IMG/VR virus record: IMGVR_UViG_2636415959_000001
Coordinates: 1-33,961 of that record
Source of the DNA: a virus
Lineage: Duplodnaviria; Heunggongvirae; Uroviricota; Caudoviricetes
Direction: 5' to 3' (one strand)
DNA: 33,961 nt
In this document: piece by piece, positions 4,366 through 25,530 of the stretch
Numbering within the stretch: the stretch's first letter is position 1
Layout of the letters: the number at the start of each line of letters is the position of its first letter
Made by a program: the position numbers and the translations under genes
Notes under the pieces: model-generated
What the model was told of the DNA's origin: nothing
Database searches by the model: none
What the model saw: only the letters and a program-made list of their open reading frames with translations

Positions 4366-4869
4366 TCAGTGCAAAATGTGTTGAACGGGTATTGCTTCGC
4401 CGACACGTAACCGAACAGCAAGATCCATAAACATCTCGTCGAGAAAACCGCTGAACCACGAATGACCGTCTTCTTTCAGGCGCTGATCGTTGGCGGAGTA
4501 GAACTGGAAGACAGCCAGATATCGCTCCTGTGGTTTTTGCTCGATCAGTGCGCCTTCTACGTGTTCAATAAGCAGGTTCTCGATAAGCTGCCGCGTTAAG
4601 CCAAAAACAAACTTACCGGTTTTAAACTGATACTCACCGTCACGGAGGCCCCAGCGTTTTTCACATTCAATCAGGTAGGTAAGGGCGACTGTTCCGCGCA
4701 TGTGCTTACAGATGATTTCAGCCCACTCGTGCTGCTCGGCAGCAGTTAGCTCGTGGTCTCCACTGCGTTTTTCATCCATCATCCATGCAGGGAAATTCAT
4801 ACCAGTCCTTTCATGGATATCTTTCAGCCTGGCGACAAGCTGCTTGATGTTTTCGTTATTTCCTGCCAT
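4366..4869 (-). CDS. Hypothetical protein (167 aa)
   Basis: ORF with plausible start; no recognised motif. Confidence 0.5.
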   Translation of the reverse strand: MAGNNENIKQLVARLKDIHERTGMNFPAWMMDEKRSGDHELTAAEQHEWAEIICKHMRGTVALTYLIECEKRWGLRDGEYQFKTGKFVFGLTRQLIENLLIEHVEGALIEQKPQERYLAVFQFYSANDQRLKEDGHSWFSGFLDEMFMDLAVRLRVGEAIPVQHILH

Positions 4870-5328: not shown

Positions 5329-5715
5329 TCATACGAAGCGCCTCACAGCTAAAGAAGCGACTACCCGACCATGAATTTTGATATCTTTCAGCTCATCGGT
5401 ATTGAGGGTGAAGGTTTCGTAATGATGGTTGTCCGAAATAATTTTCAATGAACCACAAACTAATGGCTCAACTCTCTTAATAAAAAGGCACGGACGGCCA
5501 AATACATCCATCGTATAAACATAAATGCCAGGGGTTAGCGTGCGGCCACCGCAATCAACGAAAGCCACAACCTCACATGGTTCGATGGTCGGCTGCATTG
5601 AGTCTCCCTCCATCATGCAGCTCTTAACACGGTTACCAAAGTCATTAATGTTGTCAGAGCCGAACAGCATTTGAGGTGTTTTAATTGGCTGATTAATTGC
5701 GATAGCGTTTTGCAT
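5329..5715 (-). CDS. Standalone S24 (LexA/CI/UmuD-type) peptidase-domain protein without HTH
   Basis: 128 aa; GDSMQP serine motif and downstream ..LFIKRVE.. lysine motif parallel the C-terminal domain of the adjacent CI (..GNSMEPVI.. / ..GWKRLKI..); no N-terminal DNA-binding domain; RBS GAGGAA 7 nt upstream. Confidence 0.6.
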   Translation of the reverse strand: MQNAIAINQPIKTPQMLFGSDNINDFGNRVKSCMMEGDSMQPTIEPCEVVAFVDCGGRTLTPGIYVYTMDVFGRPCLFIKRVEPLVCGSLKIISDNHHYETFTLNTDELKDIKIHGRVVASLAVRRFV

Positions 5716-6253: not shown

Positions 6254-6946
6254 TCAGAAGATTGTTGATACCCAAAACAGCCTTCCTAAAACCTCAAGAC
6301 TATCCATGTCTACTTCTTCGTCAGGGTATTCATCAGAGTTATAGCTTCTGATTGTCACCTTGTCTGGCCCAGATCTGTAGAGGATTTTTAACCTTTTCCA
6401 TCCACCTTGGTTGATGCCGTAAATTTTACCATCAACGATACGCTTGTCATGGCAGTTTATAGCAACAGTAGAGCCATCAGCGATCACTGGCTCCATGCTA
6501 TTCCCGTGTGCAGCAAAGCATAGAACGCCATCACCATCACTATTAGCTCCCACCTTTCGCAATGTTGCTTTGGAAAACCTAAGTTTTTTGCCATTGTAAT
6601 CATCATTAAGAGCGCTGCCATCTCCACATGCGAACTCGATATCCTTCAAGTAAGGCACCTCTACCTCATCATCCTCAAGCGGCGTTTGCTTATCCCATGG
6701 ATCTATACCAAACATCCTTTGTTCTGGAGTTTTTGCGGGCCCCATGGTGCCTTCACCAGTGCTTAACCATATTGGATCTACATCCAACGCTTTGGCTATA
6801 TCCACGATTTTTCCGCTGGACTGGGCTTTTCCTGAGGTTAGTTTTTGTATGGCCCCCTGGCTTACCCCAACCCTATGCGCTAATTGACTTTGTGTAGCCC
6901 CGGCATGAGCCATCGCCAGCCTTAGTCTTTCTGCAAGTGTGTTCAT
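6254..6946 (-). CDS. cI: CI-like phage repressor (HTH + S24 peptidase)
   Basis: 230 aa; N-terminal HTH (..QSQLAHRVGVSQGAIQKLTSGK..); C-terminal autocleavage domain (GNSMEP, KRLK); divergent from the cro-like gene. Confidence 0.9.
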   Translation of the reverse strand: MNTLAERLRLAMAHAGATQSQLAHRVGVSQGAIQKLTSGKAQSSGKIVDIAKALDVDPIWLSTGEGTMGPAKTPEQRMFGIDPWDKQTPLEDDEVEVPYLKDIEFACGDGSALNDDYNGKKLRFSKATLRKVGANSDGDGVLCFAAHGNSMEPVIADGSTVAINCHDKRIVDGKIYGINQGGWKRLKILYRSGPDKVTIRSYNSDEYPDEEVDMDSLEVLGRLFWVSTIF

Positions 6947-7072
6947 CTAAGTATCTCCGATTTCTGTGCATATTTAATACCACAGGATTAACCATGGCAA
7001 GCGGATAATACTTGATTAATTATTCCTTTGGTATTATTTTATATCTTTAATATTAATACTAAGGGCTTTGTT
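6947..7072. promoter_or_regulatory. Immunity switch region (OR / PRM / PR-like) between cI and cro
   Basis: 126-bp AT-rich divergent intergenic region with repeated TAATAC / GTATTA half-sites (e.g. 6975-6980, 7007-7012, 7032-7036, 7054-7059). Confidence 0.5.
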
Positions 7073-7315
7073 ATGACTGATGAGGTTTTTGAATCCCCAA
7101 TGGCGAAAGCCGTGTACGTTGCTGGTGGGCAAAGTTCGCTTGCTAAAAAGGTTGGCGTTACGCAAGGAGCGGTCTGGAAGTGGGTCAGGGGGGTCAAGAA
7201 AGTTTCTCCTGTCCATGCAGTAGCAGTCTCAAACGCAGTTAATGGAGTTGTTAAGCCTCATGAACTGCGTCCTGATTTGCCGACTCTTTTCCCACACCCG
7301 GGCAATGAGGTGTGA
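7073..7315 (+). CDS. cro: Cro-like HTH regulator
   Basis: 80 aa from ATG 7073; HTH ..SSLAKKVGVTQGAVWKWVRG..; divergent from cI. Confidence 0.7.
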   Translation: MTDEVFESPMAKAVYVAGGQSSLAKKVGVTQGAVWKWVRGVKKVSPVHAVAVSNAVNGVVKPHELRPDLPTLFPHPGNEV

Positions 7316-7316
7316 T

Positions 7317-7514
7317 ATGTCGCACTCAATCACTACCGAAAACCAAATTAAGCCATTGGATATCGATTATCGCGATCCGCGCGGTGTGATTGTGCATGTC
7401 ACCGGCTGGAATCGGGATAAGCAGCAGGTGTATTTCACCAGGCAGAATTATCCGCATGAGTGCATGCAACCGGTCTGGAAGTTTCAACAGTATTTCAAGA
7501 GGTTAACATCATGA
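7317..7514 (+). CDS. Hypothetical protein (65 aa) between cro and the replication gene
   Basis: ORF starting MSHSITTENQ at 7317; occupies the cII-equivalent position but shows no obvious HTH. Confidence 0.4.
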   Translation: MSHSITTENQIKPLDIDYRDPRGVIVHVTGWNRDKQQVYFTRQNYPHECMQPVWKFQQYFKRLTS

Positions 7515-8434
7515 GCAGCAAACTACAGGGCTATGTCTGGGATGCCTGCGCTGTTTCTGGTGTCAAGGGGACGCGGCTAATGGTTATGGTACGCCTGGCT
7601 GATTATTCCAGTGATGATGGGAAAAGCTATCCTGGCATAAAAACCATTGCCCGCCAACTTGGCGCGGGGGAGAGCACCATACGAACAGCCATTGCTGAAC
7701 TTGAATCAGAGAAATGGCTTCGACGTGAGAATCGCCGGAATGGTAACCGCAATACATCAAATATGTACTTTTTGAATGTCGAAAAACTTGAAGAAATTGC
7801 ACTTCGGGAGAGATCTGCTATTCGTCTGGATCGACGCAAAAACAACCATTTTGACCCGTCAGATTCTGACGTATCGGATTCTGACAAGTCAGATTTTGAC
7901 GCGTCAGAAATGAGTGACTCAAGTGCACTTGACCCGTCAGATTCTGGCAAAAACAACCATTTTGACCCGTCAGATTCTGGGGGACATGATCCACAAGGTT
8001 TAAAACATGATCCACAAGTAAAAGATCATGAACCACAAGAAGTGCGCGCAAAGCGCCAGAAAAAATCTTCTTTCGACCCTGCATGGCTAAAACCTGAAAA
8101 CGTCAGCGCTGAAATCTGGCTGGACTGGATTAAATTTCGCCGGGAGAAGCGTCAACCGCTGACGGAAACAACCTGCGCATACCAGGCTAAGCAGCTTGCA
8201 GGCCATCAGAATGCCGATGAAGTGATCCGACGCTCAATTGCTGGAGGCTGGCAGGGATTGTTCCCGGATCGTGTGCCCAACAAGCCCGCAATGTCACTAG
8301 CTGAAAACGAAACGCTGACCGCAAGTCAACCGCCAGCTGGGTCATGGTGCACACCATCTGGAGATGGAACAGCGGAGGTATTTATCAACCAGGCCGCTAT
8401 CGAGCGCATGAAGCGCGGGAGTTATCGCCCATGA
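7511..8434 (+). CDS. Replication initiation protein (lambda O-like role) with internal iteron-encoded repeats
   Basis: 307 aa from ATG 7511; N-terminal winged-helix-like region; central low-complexity KNNHFDPSDSD repeats encoded by DNA iterons; conserved C-terminal region. Confidence 0.65.
   Translation: MSSKLQGYVWDACAVSGVKGTRLMVMVRLADYSSDDGKSYPGIKTIARQLGAGESTIRTAIAELESEKWLRRENRRNGNRNTSNMYFLNVEKLEEIALRERSAIRLDRRKNNHFDPSDSDVSDSDKSDFDASEMSDSSALDPSDSGKNNHFDPSDSGGHDPQGLKHDPQVKDHEPQEVRAKRQKKSSFDPAWLKPENVSAEIWLDWIKFRREKRQPLTETTCAYQAKQLAGHQNADEVIRRSIAGGWQGLFPDRVPNKPAMSLAENETLTASQPPAGSWCTPSGDGTAEVFINQAAIERMKRGSYRP
7836..8040. repeat. Iteron array (putative replication origin) inside the replication initiator gene
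   Basis: 33-bp direct repeat GCAAAAACAACCATTTTGACCCGTCAGATTCTG at 7836-7868 and 7947-7979; further ~15-bp GTCAGATTCTGAC-like units; CATGATCCACAAG repeats at 7985-8040. Confidence 0.65.
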
Positions 8435-8540
8435 AATCATTCCTCAAGCGTGTGCTGGTGGCTGGATATAATCACGGCGTTCTGAGCGAGGGATTCGTGA
8501 CATGGTGTTTTGTTAAATTTGATTTACGGAGTGAGTGAGC

Positions 8541-10412
8541 ATGACGCCCGCCGAACTTTCAGAAAAATTATGGGACAACGCCGAAAGGGTTGCAAAGTAC
8601 CTGCTGCCAAAAGGTCACCTGGAAGGCAAAGAATGGTGTGTTGGGAATATCAACGGTGACGCCGGAAAGAGCCTTAAAATTAACATCGGTGGCAAAAAAA
8701 CGTGGGCAGACTTCGCCAGCGGCGACAGTGGTGATCTGCTTGATTTGTGGGTGTTGGTACGCAACTGCCAGCTGCATGATGCGATGCGTGAGGCAAAAGA
8801 ATTTCTCGGTCTGAAAGACGACGATCACCATTTCGAGGCGAAGAAAAAAACATTCTCCAGGCCGACGAAGAAGGGCGTGAAAAAAGCGAGCAATTGTTAC
8901 GGTTATCTGGCTTCGCGTGGTATCACCCGAGAGACAGTGGATCTGTTCCGGGTATCTGATGCGGTGGTCTGGTATCACGATGAAAATCGCGAAGTACCCG
9001 CCGTGGCATTCCCGTACATCCGGAACGGCGAACTGCTTCAAGTAAAACGCATCGGTACTGAACGACCAAACGGCAAAAAGATAATTATGGCTGAGGCGGA
9101 TTGCGAGCCATGTCTCTTTGGTTGGCAGGCCCTGGACAAATCCACGCGTCTGGTCGTTCTGTGCGAAGGCGAGATTGATTGTATGACCTTCACGCAGCTT
9201 GGTTACGACGCACTTTCTGTTCCCTTTGGCGGCGGCAAGGGTGCCAAACAGCAGTGGATTGAATATGAGTACCACAATCTGGATCGCTTTCAGGAGATCT
9301 GGCTTTGCCTGGATAACGACGATGTCGGCCGTGAAGCTGCAAAGGAAATTGCCAGACGACTTGGCGAGCATCGCTGCCGCATGGTTGAACTCCCGCACAA
9401 GGATATCAACGATTGCCTGATGAGCGGCATGGACAGTGAGTCCATCCTGGAGCACATGGAACGCGCTAAATTTTTCGATCCAGATGAACTGTGCTCGGCA
9501 GGTGATTTACTTCAGGAAACCATTGAAGCGTTTGAGCATCGCGATGTTGGCTTGTTCACCAGCCCATGGACCTCGCTGAATTACAATTTCAAATTTCGCG
9601 CCGGAGAACTGACGCTGGTAAATGGCGTGAATGGTCACGGCAAGACCGAACTGGTTGGCCATATCGCAGTTGCTGCTATGAATCAGGGGATTCGGACGTG
9701 CATCGCCTCTCTGGAACTGAAGCCAGGGAAAATGTTGGCCCGCCTGACGCGGCAGACTATCTGTACCGCATCACCGAAACGCGAAGAAATCGTTATGACG
9801 AACGAATGGTTCTCCGATCGTCTGTGGGTGTTCAAACTCACCGGCACCGCGAAAGCTGGCCGTCTGCTGGAAATCTTCGCCTATGCCCGGCGTCGGTATG
9901 GAATCGATCTGTTCGTTATCGACAACCTGGCGAAATGCGGGCTCGATGAGGAGGACTACGGCGGACAGAAAGAATTTATCGACACCCTGTGTGACTTCAA
10001 AAACGAACATAACTGTCACGTCCTTCTGGTGACGCACGCCCGCAAAACCAACGAAGCGGCACCGACCGGGAAAATGGACGTCAAAGGCACCGGCGCATTA
10101 ACCGATATGCCTGATAACGTTATGTCCGTCTGGCGCAACATTCCCCGCGAACTGGCACAACGTAAGGCTGAAAAAATGGGATACGAAAGCCTGGATAAGG
10201 ATGAGCAGGCAGCGCTCCAGATGCCAGCTTCAATGATTCGCCTGCTCAAACAACGCGAAGGTGAGGGGTGGGTTGGTGATATTGGCGCAAATTTTGATAC
10301 CCGTTCACACCAGTTTCTGGAAGGAGAAAAACAACCATTTAACTATCTGGTCGGTAAGCCTCAGAGCGAGGTGGATCTTGAATGGGAAGCAGGCAACGTT
10401 ACGAGGTACTGA
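8541..10412 (+). CDS. Bifunctional DNA primase / DnaB-family (SF4) helicase, T7 gp4-like architecture
   Basis: N-terminal primase-like region and Toprim-like motif (..VVLCEGEIDCMTF..); C-terminal Walker A-like GVNGHGKTE and Walker B-like DLFVIDNL; ATG 8541 preferred over GTG 8535. Confidence 0.8.
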   Translation: MTPAELSEKLWDNAERVAKYLLPKGHLEGKEWCVGNINGDAGKSLKINIGGKKTWADFASGDSGDLLDLWVLVRNCQLHDAMREAKEFLGLKDDDHHFEAKKKTFSRPTKKGVKKASNCYGYLASRGITRETVDLFRVSDAVVWYHDENREVPAVAFPYIRNGELLQVKRIGTERPNGKKIIMAEADCEPCLFGWQALDKSTRLVVLCEGEIDCMTFTQLGYDALSVPFGGGKGAKQQWIEYEYHNLDRFQEIWLCLDNDDVGREAAKEIARRLGEHRCRMVELPHKDINDCLMSGMDSESILEHMERAKFFDPDELCSAGDLLQETIEAFEHRDVGLFTSPWTSLNYNFKFRAGELTLVNGVNGHGKTELVGHIAVAAMNQGIRTCIASLELKPGKMLARLTRQTICTASPKREEIVMTNEWFSDRLWVFKLTGTAKAGRLLEIFAYARRRYGIDLFVIDNLAKCGLDEEDYGGQKEFIDTLCDFKNEHNCHVLLVTHARKTNEAAPTGKMDVKGTGALTDMPDNVMSVWRNIPRELAQRKAEKMGYESLDKDEQAALQMPASMIRLLKQREGEGWVGDIGANFDTRSHQFLEGEKQPFNYLVGKPQSEVDLEWEAGNVTRY

Positions 10413-23421: not shown

Positions 23422-23570
23422 CGGCTGAATACCTCACTGATCGCTTCTTTGACTGCGCCAGTTACTGGCGCATTAATCCCTTCGAATTGCTGAATATGCC
23501 GATCAGTGAAATTCCCTTGCTGGTCAGTCAGGCAAACAGGATAGAGCAGGAGAAACGCACACATGGCTGA
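23152..23570 (+). CDS. Tail assembly chaperone, predicted -1 frameshift fusion product
   Basis: Slippery heptamer TTTTTTC (23403-23409) in the 0 frame (GGT TTT TTC); a -1 shift enters the overlapping ORF that ends at 23570. Confidence 0.5.
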
Positions 23571-25530
23571 ATTTGAGCTTAAGGCGTTGATCACCGGTGT
23601 CGACAGGCTTTCTCCCGCGCTGTCGAAAATGCAAAAGAAAATCCGGGGATTTAAACGCCAGGCGGAAGAAGCGTCAAAGGGTGGGCTGGCGCTTGGTGGC
23701 GGACTGGCAGCGGGTCTGACGCTTTCCCTGAAATCTTATGCCGATCAGGAAAACGCCGCCACCGGGCTGAAAGTCGCCATGATGGATGCGAATGGCGAGG
23801 TTGGAAAGAGCTTTCAGGACATCAATAAACTGGCTATTGGCCTGGGTAACCAGCTACCCGGTACAACGGCTGATTTCCAGAACATGATGCAGATGCTGGT
23901 GCGTCAGGGGATCCCGGCAGAAAACATTCTTGGCGGTGTGGGTAAAGCGACAGCTTATCTTGCGGTACAACTGAAAAAAACACCGGAAGCGGCTGCTGAG
24001 TTTGCTGCAAAGATGCAGGATGCTACCGGAACGGCGTCAGAAGACATGATGGGGCTGTTCGACACTATCCAGAAGGCGTTTTATCTGGGCGTTGACGATA
24101 CCAACATGTTGTCCTTCTTCACTAAAACCAGTTCTGTTCTGAAGATGGTGAACAAGGACGGTCTTCAGGCTGCACAGAGCCTTGCCCCCATCAGCGTCAT
24201 GATGGATCAGATGGGGATGAACGGGGAGTCGGCAGGTAATGCCCTGCGAAAAGTTATCCAGTCCGGATTAAGCGTTAAGAAAATCAGGGACGTCAATAAA
24301 ATCATGGCCCGCCAGAAACTCGGGGTACAGCTCGATTTTACTGACGGCAAAGGAAGTTTTGGCGGTCTTGATAACATGTTCAGGCAACTGGCAAAGCTGC
24401 GAAAACTGACCGACGTTAAGCGAACAGGCGTACTTAAGGCAATATTTGGTGATGATGCCGAAACCCTTCAGGTGGTCAATGCACTAATCGATAAAGGAAA
24501 GGATGGTTACGATCAGATCCAGCAGAAGATGAATAAACAGGCCAGCCTGAATAAACGTGTTCAGGCACAGCTTGGTACGCTGTCCAACCTGTGGGAGGCA
24601 ATGACGGGGACCGCAACTAACGGCCTTGCGGCTATTGGCGGCGCATTTTCTGGTGACGCCAAAAATATCACGCAATGGCTGGGGGAGTTGGGGGAAAAAT
24701 TCACGAAGTTTGCGGATGAAAATCCCCGGGTTATTCGCGGCGTCGTCGGGCTTGCTGCCGGTCTTGCGATTCTGAAACTGGGATTGATGGGCGTGGGCAG
24801 TGCCATCAGTATCGTCAGCAGGATCATGTCGATGACGCCGATTGGCATGATTGCGACGGCGATTGCCTTGGCTGCGGGATTAATTATCACTAACTGGGAT
24901 GTTGTTGGACCTTATTTCAAGAAGCTCTGGGAAACCATTGGTCCTTATTTTGAGGCTGGCTGGGAACTTCTGAAGAAGGTTTTTGCCTGGTCGCCGCTGG
25001 GGATGGTAATCAATAACTGGGGACCGGTTGTTAAGTGGTTTCAGGATATGTGGGACAAGCTGAAGCCAATTATTGAGTGGTTTACCGACAGTTCCGGTGA
25101 CACGGTCGATGCCATTAACTCGGCGCAGTGGGGCGCGGGTGCTTATGATGCTTATGGGACGGGAATACCGGCGCGGGGATACACACCTTATCCGGCGGTA
25201 GATCCGGCTCAGTCAAACAACGCCTCCGGTGACACGGTCGATGCCATTAACTCGGCGCAGTGGGGCGCGGGTGCTTATGATGCTTATGGGACGGGAATAC
25301 CGGCGCGGGGATACACACCTTATCCGGCGGTAGATCCGGCTCAGTCAAACAACGCCTCCGATGCTACAGGCCCGAATCCCTTCATGATTAACAAAGCTTC
25401 TGCGCCAAAAGTTGACGGTGAGATCAAGGTCTCTTTTGTGAATTCGCCTCCGGGTATGCGGGTTATGGAAACGCGATCCAGCGGTTTTGATATAAATCAC
25501 GATGTTGGCTATACGCATATTGGCAGATGA
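23563..25530 (+). CDS. Tail tape measure protein
   Basis: 655 aa; helical/Gly-Ala-rich membrane-like segments; contains a perfect in-frame 132-bp tandem duplication. Confidence 0.85.
   Translation: MAEFELKALITGVDRLSPALSKMQKKIRGFKRQAEEASKGGLALGGGLAAGLTLSLKSYADQENAATGLKVAMMDANGEVGKSFQDINKLAIGLGNQLPGTTADFQNMMQMLVRQGIPAENILGGVGKATAYLAVQLKKTPEAAAEFAAKMQDATGTASEDMMGLFDTIQKAFYLGVDDTNMLSFFTKTSSVLKMVNKDGLQAAQSLAPISVMMDQMGMNGESAGNALRKVIQSGLSVKKIRDVNKIMARQKLGVQLDFTDGKGSFGGLDNMFRQLAKLRKLTDVKRTGVLKAIFGDDAETLQVVNALIDKGKDGYDQIQQKMNKQASLNKRVQAQLGTLSNLWEAMTGTATNGLAAIGGAFSGDAKNITQWLGELGEKFTKFADENPRVIRGVVGLAAGLAILKLGLMGVGSAISIVSRIMSMTPIGMIATAIALAAGLIITNWDVVGPYFKKLWETIGPYFEAGWELLKKVFAWSPLGMVINNWGPVVKWFQDMWDKLKPIIEWFTDSSGDTVDAINSAQWGAGAYDAYGTGIPARGYTPYPAVDPAQSNNASGDTVDAINSAQWGAGAYDAYGTGIPARGYTPYPAVDPAQSNNASDATGPNPFMINKASAPKVDGEIKVSFVNSPPGMRVMETRSSGFDINHDVGYTHIGR
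25093..25356. repeat. Perfect tandem duplication (2 x 132 bp) inside the tape measure gene
   Basis: 25093-25224 and 25225-25356 read identical by eye (TCCGGTGACACGGTCGATGCC...CAAACAACGCC), encoding two copies of a 44-aa unit. Confidence 0.9.

Follow-up and report, generated by a model that had tools for sequence, protein, structure and literature searches.

The replication origin of phage lambda consists of four iterons of 18 base pairs (bp) and an AT-rich tract, and is the site of the 'O-some'. Origins inside initiator genes are reportedly also described in the 2006 review of Weigel and Seitz for gene 18 of P22, for gene 38 of SPP1 (oriL), and for lactococcal and streptococcal phages. The lambda origin lies inside gene O, and phages encoding Shiga toxin (Stx) have six iterons where lambda has four, which adds 13 amino acids (aa) to the O protein (PMC7466680). 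Here, we analyse a stretch of 33,961 nucleotides (nt) of viral DNA (IMG/VR record IMGVR_UViG_2636415959_000001), which we call the window. It is a compact lambdoid phage or prophage, temperate and enterobacterial, and its putative replication initiator gene (7511-8434, plus strand, 924 nt, 307 aa) contains an array of repeats. A previous reading of the sequence, hereafter the original prediction, had proposed that these repeats form a lambda-like origin embedded in the initiator gene. The gene context, the position of the array, its conservation at the DNA level, and its inheritance as part of a module all support this proposal. We put at roughly 0.75 the probability that the region 7830-8095 is the origin of replication of the phage, placed within the linker-coding middle of its own initiator gene. 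We infer from the sequence that the initiator binds the repeats and that melting and the start of replication occur there.

Repeats within the initiator gene

The array contains two exact copies of the 33-bp direct repeat GCAAAAACAACCATTTTGACCCGTCAGATTCTG, at 7836-7868 and 7947-7979, as originally predicted, and a 64% copy at 7914-7946. The first exact copy comprises a phased A5/T4 tract and, after it, the left part of the first iteron. At least four shorter units had been announced, and the 13-mer GTCAGATTCTGAC, a 6-1-6 palindrome, is found with zero to two mismatches at 7858, 7873, 7888, 7936, and 7969, alongside an orphan half-site. The unit has the form GTCAGA-W-TCTGAC, and five to six such units can be counted. 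Iteron 1 (TTTGACCC-GTCAGA-T-TCTGAC, 7850-7870) has a core that is invariant among close relatives. It is followed by iterons 2 and 3 (ATCGGATTCTGAC and GTCAGATTTTGAC, 7873-7900), which are in a 15-bp register, by the orphan GTCAGA half-site (7903-7908), by iteron 4 (CTTGACCC-GTCAGA-T-TCTGGC, 7928-7948), and by iteron 5 (TTTGACCC-GTCAGA-T-TCTGGG, 7961-7981), which lies 33 bp from iteron 4 and adjoins a second set of repeats. The cores are spaced by 15, 15, 48, and 33 bp from start to start, and the half-sites TYTGAC and GTCAGA alternate in the 15-bp register. These motifs are concentrated in the array: a single other site matches the 13-mer with two mismatches or fewer in the 34-kb window, the three exact occurrences of the core CAGAWTCTG in the whole window are all within the array, and 5 of its 11 one-mismatch matches fall within 120 bp. 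We found no further repeat array between positions 4800 and 12000.

The second set of repeats, also foreseen within the open reading frame (ORF), is made of three A-rich repeats of 21 bp (CATGATCCACAAG at 7985 and 8006, CATGAACCACAAG at 8027) spanning 7984-8039, with GATC sites at 7988, 8009, and 8024. Tandem Repeats Finder describes the same interval as having a period of 21 and 2.7 copies. We propose that 7984-8039 is an unwinding region or an auxiliary binding site. The original prediction had suggested looking for an AT-rich unwinding element just downstream of the repeats. The DNA at 7984-8040 is A-rich on the top strand (AT skew of +0.44 to +0.53) and forms a local minimum of duplex stability (among the least stable 2.5-3% of the 40-bp windows of the stretch), but this minimum is not extreme and the DNA is only moderately AT-rich (40% GC). 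To its right lies a tail of constrained DNA (8040-8095) containing GCGCGCAAAGCGC and an A6 tract, where the breakpoint that ends the homology to clades with other C-termini is also located. To the left of the array lies a low-stability AT-rich stretch (7740-7800, 30% GC) whose synonymous sites are not conserved and which would be at most an accessory feature. The curvature analysis that had been suggested gives a peak at the 99.8th percentile at 7830-7860. Bends at the 99.8th-99.9th percentile are predicted by a first-order wedge model in the A5/T4 part of both 33-bp repeats, flanking the strong units, but we give them little weight, because the A5/T4 part is not conserved in all relatives.

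The repeats translate into a low-complexity linker, as had been noted: the array codes for KNNHFDPSDSDVSDSDKSDFDAS...KNNHFDPSDSGGHDPQGLKHDPQVKDHEPQ within the ORF 7511-8434. Recoding the unit TCAGATTCTGAC as AGCGACAGCGAT leaves the protein unchanged. The linker follows an N-terminal winged helix-turn-helix (HTH) domain (aa 1-102, 7511-7816, plus strand), which we presume from its sequence to be the domain that binds the iterons. The protein matches the Pfam family HTH_36 (PF13730; 37.1 bits for a cutoff of 25) and, more weakly, DnaD_N, GntR, and HTH_29. It also matches the PHROG families phrog_11896 (E = 2.3e-54), phrog_391 (1.5e-33), and phrog_678 (2.6e-33), where the initiator families are called 'primosomal protein' or 'replication initiation O-like', names that are annotations only. 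The profile of the N-terminal domain matches only winged HTH proteins of the MarR/GntR type among PDB sequences, and the search of these sequences with the whole initiator gave no match. We also found no match to the plasmid iteron Rep families (Rep_3, RepA, pi, TrfA) in Pfam, NCBIfam, or PDB sequences. We used an AlphaFold2 model solely for the disorder of the linker (aa 111-185) and for the helices at aa 190-244 (predicted local distance difference test, pLDDT, of 80-89); Foldseek found nothing for this model in PDB at E ≤ 0.001, showing only a MarR-like trend. Homologous proteins are abundant (1418 in the first search), and most are annotated just as 'helix-turn-helix domain-containing protein'. 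Identical or near-identical initiators are found in Salmonella, Citrobacter, E. coli, and Enterobacter, and initiators with 76-88% identity in Klebsiella.

This organisation closely parallels that of lambda. The array covers nt 338-471 of the 924-nt gene, and the lambda iterons cover nt 349-433 of the 900-nt gene O (annotation of the lambda record). In both cases, the units have an internal dyad symmetry and are followed by a more A/T-rich, strand-asymmetric tract, and the part of the gene coding for the iterons encodes a flexible linker. The copy number of iterons is polymorphic in lambda-type O genes, as it is here, where there are variants of 270, 307, and 344 aa. When lambda O is searched with BLAST, some phages share only nt 54-471 (N-terminal part and ori) and others only nt 434-897. 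The matches of the ori-bearing half and of the C-terminal half are therefore to different phages, which is what separate exchange of the two halves would produce; a similar pattern is found in the family studied here. Yet, the two systems differ in several ways. The initiator has no detectable homology to O and belongs to HTH_36 instead of Phage_rep_O, its core is CAGAWTCTG with spacings of 15 and 33 bp, and the unwinding side carries conserved GATC-bearing 21-bp repeats. The presumed partner is a Toprim/DnaB-like primase-helicase of the phage, whereas lambda uses P and the host DnaB.

Other origins offer partial likenesses. As in P22, SPP1, and the lactococcal and streptococcal phages, the putative origin lies within or beside the gene of the protein that would bind it, and the initiators of these phages belong to other families. 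The unwinding region of E. coli oriC has GATC-bearing 13-mers (GATCTnTTnTTTT), and the P1 oriR has GATC heptamers and is Dam-dependent. The window has, like them, short GATC-bearing direct repeats in an easily melted flank beside candidate initiator sites, but the sequence of its repeats is different and their GC content is only 40%.

Constraint on the DNA of the linker

To separate selection on the DNA from selection on the protein, we gathered 86 related loci, extracted the genes, and compared their codons. Viral contigs supplied the diversity for the tests, and the scan of genome contigs gave only five loci. Our synonymous measure is the fraction of codon pairs coding for the same amino acid that differ, computed among 18 distinct sequences of the window's clade (76-99% nucleotide identity). 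The N- and C-terminal domains have values of 0.42 and 0.34, the linker (aa 109-177) has 0.089, and the part with the 21-bp repeats (7982-8041) has 0.016. The values are 0.04-0.15 in 8040-8095 and 0.27-0.35 further on. The conservation of synonymous sites reaches beyond the originally predicted 7836-8040, from around 7830 to around 8095. The linker shows no such drop in non-synonymous differences (0.185 vs 0.108 in the N-terminal domain). Fisher tests on seven pairs of close sequences gave odds ratios of 0.04-0.20 for synonymous differences (p from 4e-5 to 7e-9) and no effect for amino-acid differences. Among nine pairs from different clades, the synonymous odds ratios were 0.13-0.51 and p was lower than 0.02 in eight. 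The same dip is observed independently in three other clades, hence in four clades in all. The relatives of lambda O are too alike or too mosaic for the equivalent test, since the 80 loci from viral contigs are 99-100% identical and the matches in phage collections are either at least 92% identical or mosaic.

The analysis by codon position gives a similar picture. The N-terminal domain evolves as normal coding DNA, with a diversity of 0.036 at second positions and 0.42 at third positions. At third positions, the C-terminal domain reaches 0.41, the spacers between iterons 0.27, and the iteron cores 0.165. The 21-bp repeats fall to 0.015; they vary less than any other DNA of the gene, and the usual pattern of codon positions is erased in them. 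At second positions, the spacers are 5 times as diverse as the N-terminal domain. High diversity at second positions together with low diversity at third positions indicates that the linker is weakly constrained as a protein and strongly constrained as DNA. The conservation is patchy, because the iteron cores are invariant while the spacers vary. This argues against the recent transfer of the whole segment between mosaic phages, an explanation we rejected also because amino-acid replacement is not reduced.

The codons themselves reveal what is being preserved. In the Klebsiella clade, several units were altered in concert by non-synonymous changes (TCA GAT to CCA GAA) that keep the CAGA-W-TCTG symmetry. 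The codon for aspartate before proline is GAC in the iteron units (128 vs 3), which yields TTGACCC, and GAT in the second set of repeats (167 vs 28), which yields GATCC and therefore GATC. GATC is kept in 76 of 79 genes, and to judge from these codon counts it is actively retained through codon choice. The original prediction depended on the repeats being conserved in relatives with homologous initiators; they are, and beyond what the protein needs. These sequence comparisons show that the repeats are kept at the level of the DNA and not for the protein they encode. The co-variation between the recognition helix and the iteron flanks was uninformative, because the T/C flank varies within single genes.

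A module with exchangeable partners

The clades of the family, whose proteins are 45-63% identical, share four elements: the N-terminal winged-helix domain (58-84% identical in all clades), a run of 15-bp units coding for S-x-S-D-x, two 'strong' units (consensus TyTgACCCnT-CAGAWTCTG-Rc) at +48 and +33 bp, and a second set of two or three A-rich repeats, 21 or 24 bp long, with GATCCA at the start. The spacing pattern (15, 15, 48, and 33 bp) and the consensus unit recur in clades with a protein identity as low as 45-55%. All clades keep two to three GATC sites in this second set. The number of units varies from 2 to 7 among relatives, with deletions or duplications of 111 bp. Accordingly, initiators of 270, 307, and 344 aa (P0040, P0059, P0001, P0032, P0065) differ by steps of exactly 37 aa, or 111 bp, which is the distance between the two 33-bp repeats, and a 111-bp duplication is visible in locus L014. 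The coincidence between the length steps and the distance between repeats points to unequal crossing-over between the 33-bp copies, which would have altered the number of iterons. In two loci from viral contigs, L041 (gene of 456 nt) and L044 (405 nt), the initiator gene is truncated inside the array; the repeats thus look like a hot spot where frameshifts or stops arise, and it is probable that some copies of the prophage are dead.

The homology to other clades ends right after the second set of repeats (aa 161-175 of the query in tblastn). What comes next varies: the family has at least four unrelated C-terminal domains, including Pfam Phg_2220_C, and five arrangements of the downstream genes. 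In the window's clade, the gene for a Toprim-helicase follows the initiator in 21 of 21 loci. The other arrangements have a DnaC-like gene only, a DnaC-like and a DnaB-like gene, a Dam methylase without a helicase gene, or a protein with a ParB-type HTH domain. This distribution of sequence similarity indicates that the N-terminal domain and the repeat linker are inherited as one module, while the C-termini and the downstream partners are exchanged.

Several observations can be made on these arrangements. The C-terminal domain of the window (8066-8431), which has no match in Pfam or PDB, is also present in L026, L003, L004, and L087 (phiP27), and it precedes the Toprim/DnaB-like primase-helicase in the window's clade and DnaC-like and DnaB-like genes in other clades. 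A gene for a Dam-type adenine methylase is found at 2.5 kb or less from the initiator in 20 of the 23 loci of a single clade (L043-L060, L065, L068, L070, L072, L079). In the MSVKLS clade (L061-L086), a 446-aa protein with a ParB-type HTH domain is encoded directly after the initiator in 21 of 21 loci, and we found no helicase or loader gene in the flanks of the initiator.

Described phages also carry the module. L17 of phiP27, SfII, gp41 of SfIV, and one Stx2a phage encode proteins of the same family, with 45-55% identity over the N-terminal domain and the linker. The phiP27 array is like that of the window: its TGACCCGTCAGATTCTGA units are spaced by 15, 15, 33, and 32 bp, and it has AAAACATGATCCGCAAG twice. 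SfIV carries the same kind of array. In phiP27, L17 is followed by the DnaC-like L18 and the DnaB-like L19, and the C-terminal domains and downstream replication genes of these phages differ from those of the window. L17 was deposited with the note 'unknown', and our search of the accessible literature gave no description of these repeats, of iterons, or of an origin for genes of the phiP27, SfII, SfIV, or Stx2a type. The names of these phages are easily confused: KU238067, 'Stx converting phage vB_EcoS_P27', has a lambda-type O, and NC_003356, 'Enterobacteria phage phiP27', has the HTH_36 module.

This is a known layout in an initiator family where the origin had not been pointed out, a result that is useful and not surprising to a lambda specialist. 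Replication modules of this kind are widespread in enterobacterial temperate phages (phiP27, SfII, SfIV, and a Stx2a-converting phage among them), and they now have a candidate origin that experiments can test, defined by coordinates, a consensus unit, and a rule for the spacing. Effective toxin production is reported to require phage replication (PMC7466680). The approach can be reused, because a dip in synonymous variation accompanied by the erasure of the codon-position pattern can locate origins embedded in genes.

Proposed origin function, rival explanations, and the surrounding locus

How could the origin work? The initiator gene lies between a cro-like gene and the primase-helicase gene, after cI, the cro-like gene, and the DUF4222 gene. 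After induction, rightward transcription from the promoter on the cro side would produce the DUF4222 protein, the initiator, and the primase-helicase, and would also traverse the origin. Dimers of the N-terminal winged-HTH domain could then occupy the palindromic units, spaced by 15, 15, 48, and 33 bp, in a complex resembling the lambda 'O-some'. This complex would put strain on the neighbouring 60 bp, which are A-rich and hold the three 21-bp repeats with their GATC sites, and would cause them to melt. The C-terminal domain would finally recruit the Toprim/DnaB-like primase-helicase of the phage, and, in the relatives, a DnaC-like loader with a DnaB-like helicase, or host proteins.

Several points weigh against an origin at this place. 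With 15 bp from one unit to the next, independent dimers would have little room, and the rare variants of 270 and 277 aa keep only one strong unit, together with the 21-bp repeats. The candidate unwinding region has just 40% GC, and the equally unstable stretch on the other side of the array (7740-7800) is not conserved. The region also folds strongly as RNA (z = -5.05). On the side of the protein, the AlphaFold2 model is poor (mean pLDDT of 48.6, from an alignment of 15 sequences), and there is no sign of the lambda O family: Pfam gives no Phage_rep_O match, and hhalign of the N-terminal profile against lambda O gives a probability of 1.2%. Finally, a 2022 study states that nothing is known about the replication proteins of the non-lambda Shiga-toxin phages, some of which have HTH_36 (PMC8951638).

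Alternatively, the initiator or another winged-helix protein could bind the array in a role other than initiation, making it an autoregulatory roadblock, a silencing site, or a site akin to a centromere. Constraint on the DNA and palindromes show that the DNA is read, not that replication begins there; palindromic repeats in arrays are a usual mark of partition sites as well, and in the MSVKLS clade the ParB-type HTH protein is encoded downstream in all 21 loci. Yet, we regard this as unlikely and as fitting the context less well than an origin. The window's phage encodes an integrase, and a scan of ten other ORFs matched no partition family. Wherever the array occurs, it is joined to a domain annotated as initiator and lies beside genes for helicases, loaders, or primases; its position matches that of the lambda ori, and the adjacent A-rich GATC repeats suit an unwinding element. 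Selection on the mRNA, whose hairpins of inverted repeats would control translation, stability, or the coupling to the downstream helicase gene, seems very improbable to us, even if the segment 7826-8060 folds at -75 kcal/mol (the z-score given above is relative to shuffled sequences) and GUCAG-AUU-CUGAC hairpins are feasible, with G-U pairs tolerating the TCTGG variants. There is no Rfam match in the window, the number of units (2 to 7) and their layout vary, with 111-bp indels, so that no fixed RNA fold is preserved, the core is invariant instead of covarying across clades that are 45% identical, and the most constrained part, the 21-bp repeats, is outside the strong helices. Even less credit can be given to the repeats being a mere low-complexity acidic linker of Ser, Asp, and Pro that expands by slippage and has functionless DNA. 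Some traits of the linker suit this view, namely its predicted disorder, its abundance of SD and DP motifs, and a length that recombination between repeats makes variable. However, synonymous sites in it are conserved about ten times better than elsewhere while amino-acid replacement is not reduced, the fivefold second-position diversity of the spacers indicates a weak constraint on the protein, and the choice of the Asp codon depends on the motif.

An overlapping gene in another strand or frame might also cause synonymous conservation, and the candidate is an 88-aa ORF on the minus strand (7818-8084). In the close clade, one antisense frame runs without stops through the whole linker or almost all of it. 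However, it is broken in L004, L003, and L026, another is broken in L026 and L043, and no alternative frame is open in every constrained clade, which led us to reject the antisense ORF; palindromic repeats tend to leave both strands open without any gene. We regard such a gene as the least probable explanation. A promoter was similarly rejected as an explanation for the array: the scan for promoters and terminators gave one weak promoter-like match (7962-7990), no more than expected by chance. A further proposal concerns only the second set of repeats, where TGATCCACA, TGATCCACA, and TGAACCACA could be DnaA boxes, with the host DnaA helping to open the origin. The first two sites agree with the DnaA box consensus TTATCCACA at 8 of 9 positions. 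They have the same orientation at a distance of 21 bp and do not vary in the window's clade or in L003 and L004. Against this, none fits the relaxed TTWTNCACA, which is present once in the window (at 4657), and across the window single box matches are no commoner than chance predicts. GATCC(A/G)TCAGTAAAT, which is 3 positions off the box, stands in their place in the Providencia, MSTKLQ, and MSVKLS clades, and the feature common to the whole family is GATCCA...GTAAA, not the box. We therefore find a role of DnaA doubtful in the window, and we rejected DnaA boxes as a property of the whole family, given the replacement of the sites by GATCC(A/G)TCAG in three clades.

Within an origin at 7830-8095, the GATC-bearing repeats of 21 or 24 bp could have a more active role, as a methylation-sensing switch instead of a passive melting region. 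We see this as a speculative idea with a small chance of being right. The GATC sites, hemimethylated after firing, may be sequestered by SeqA or read by the initiator. If so, the firing of a phage origin would be coupled to Dam methylation, and this would explain why four clades that differ in their helicase systems all keep GATC through their choice of codons, and why one clade has a Dam gene beside the initiator. A second idea, compatible with the switch, concerns the acidic SD/ESGG peptide that the iterons encode: it could imitate DNA and in this way gate the winged-helix domain of the same initiator.

The remainder of the window has the layout of a lambdoid phage. The integrase gene (1-1314) is on the minus strand, as are the gene of the CI-like S24 repressor (6254-6946) and, upstream of this gene, a second small ORF (5329-5715, 128 aa) with only a Peptidase_S24 domain. 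The rightward operon includes the YdaS/Cro-like gene (7028-7315) and, downstream of it, the DUF4222 gene (7242-7514, plus strand). The stop codon of the latter overlaps the start codon of the initiator (ATGA, 7511-7514) in the same operon, suggesting that the two may be translationally coupled. The gene pair made of DUF4222 and the initiator is also found in phage EKP1. The primase-helicase with Toprim and DnaB-like/AAA_25 domains (8535-10412, plus strand, PHROG 239) is presumed from its sequence and position to be the partner loaded at the origin. It is followed, in this order, by the genes for the Q antiterminator, lysis, the terminase, and the structural proteins. Downstream of the terminase gene, the ORF 23563-25530 contains a perfect tandem duplication of 132 bp (25093-25360, 2.0 copies, 100% match). 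The replication module of L001 (OM284015, 'Elizabethkingia phage EKP1') is 78% identical in DNA to that of the window, which is of the type found in prophages of Enterobacteriaceae, and its layout is similar (cI, cro, DUF4222, initiator, Toprim-helicase). Its recorded host, Elizabethkingia, is a genus of Bacteroidota, and this host label looks doubtful.

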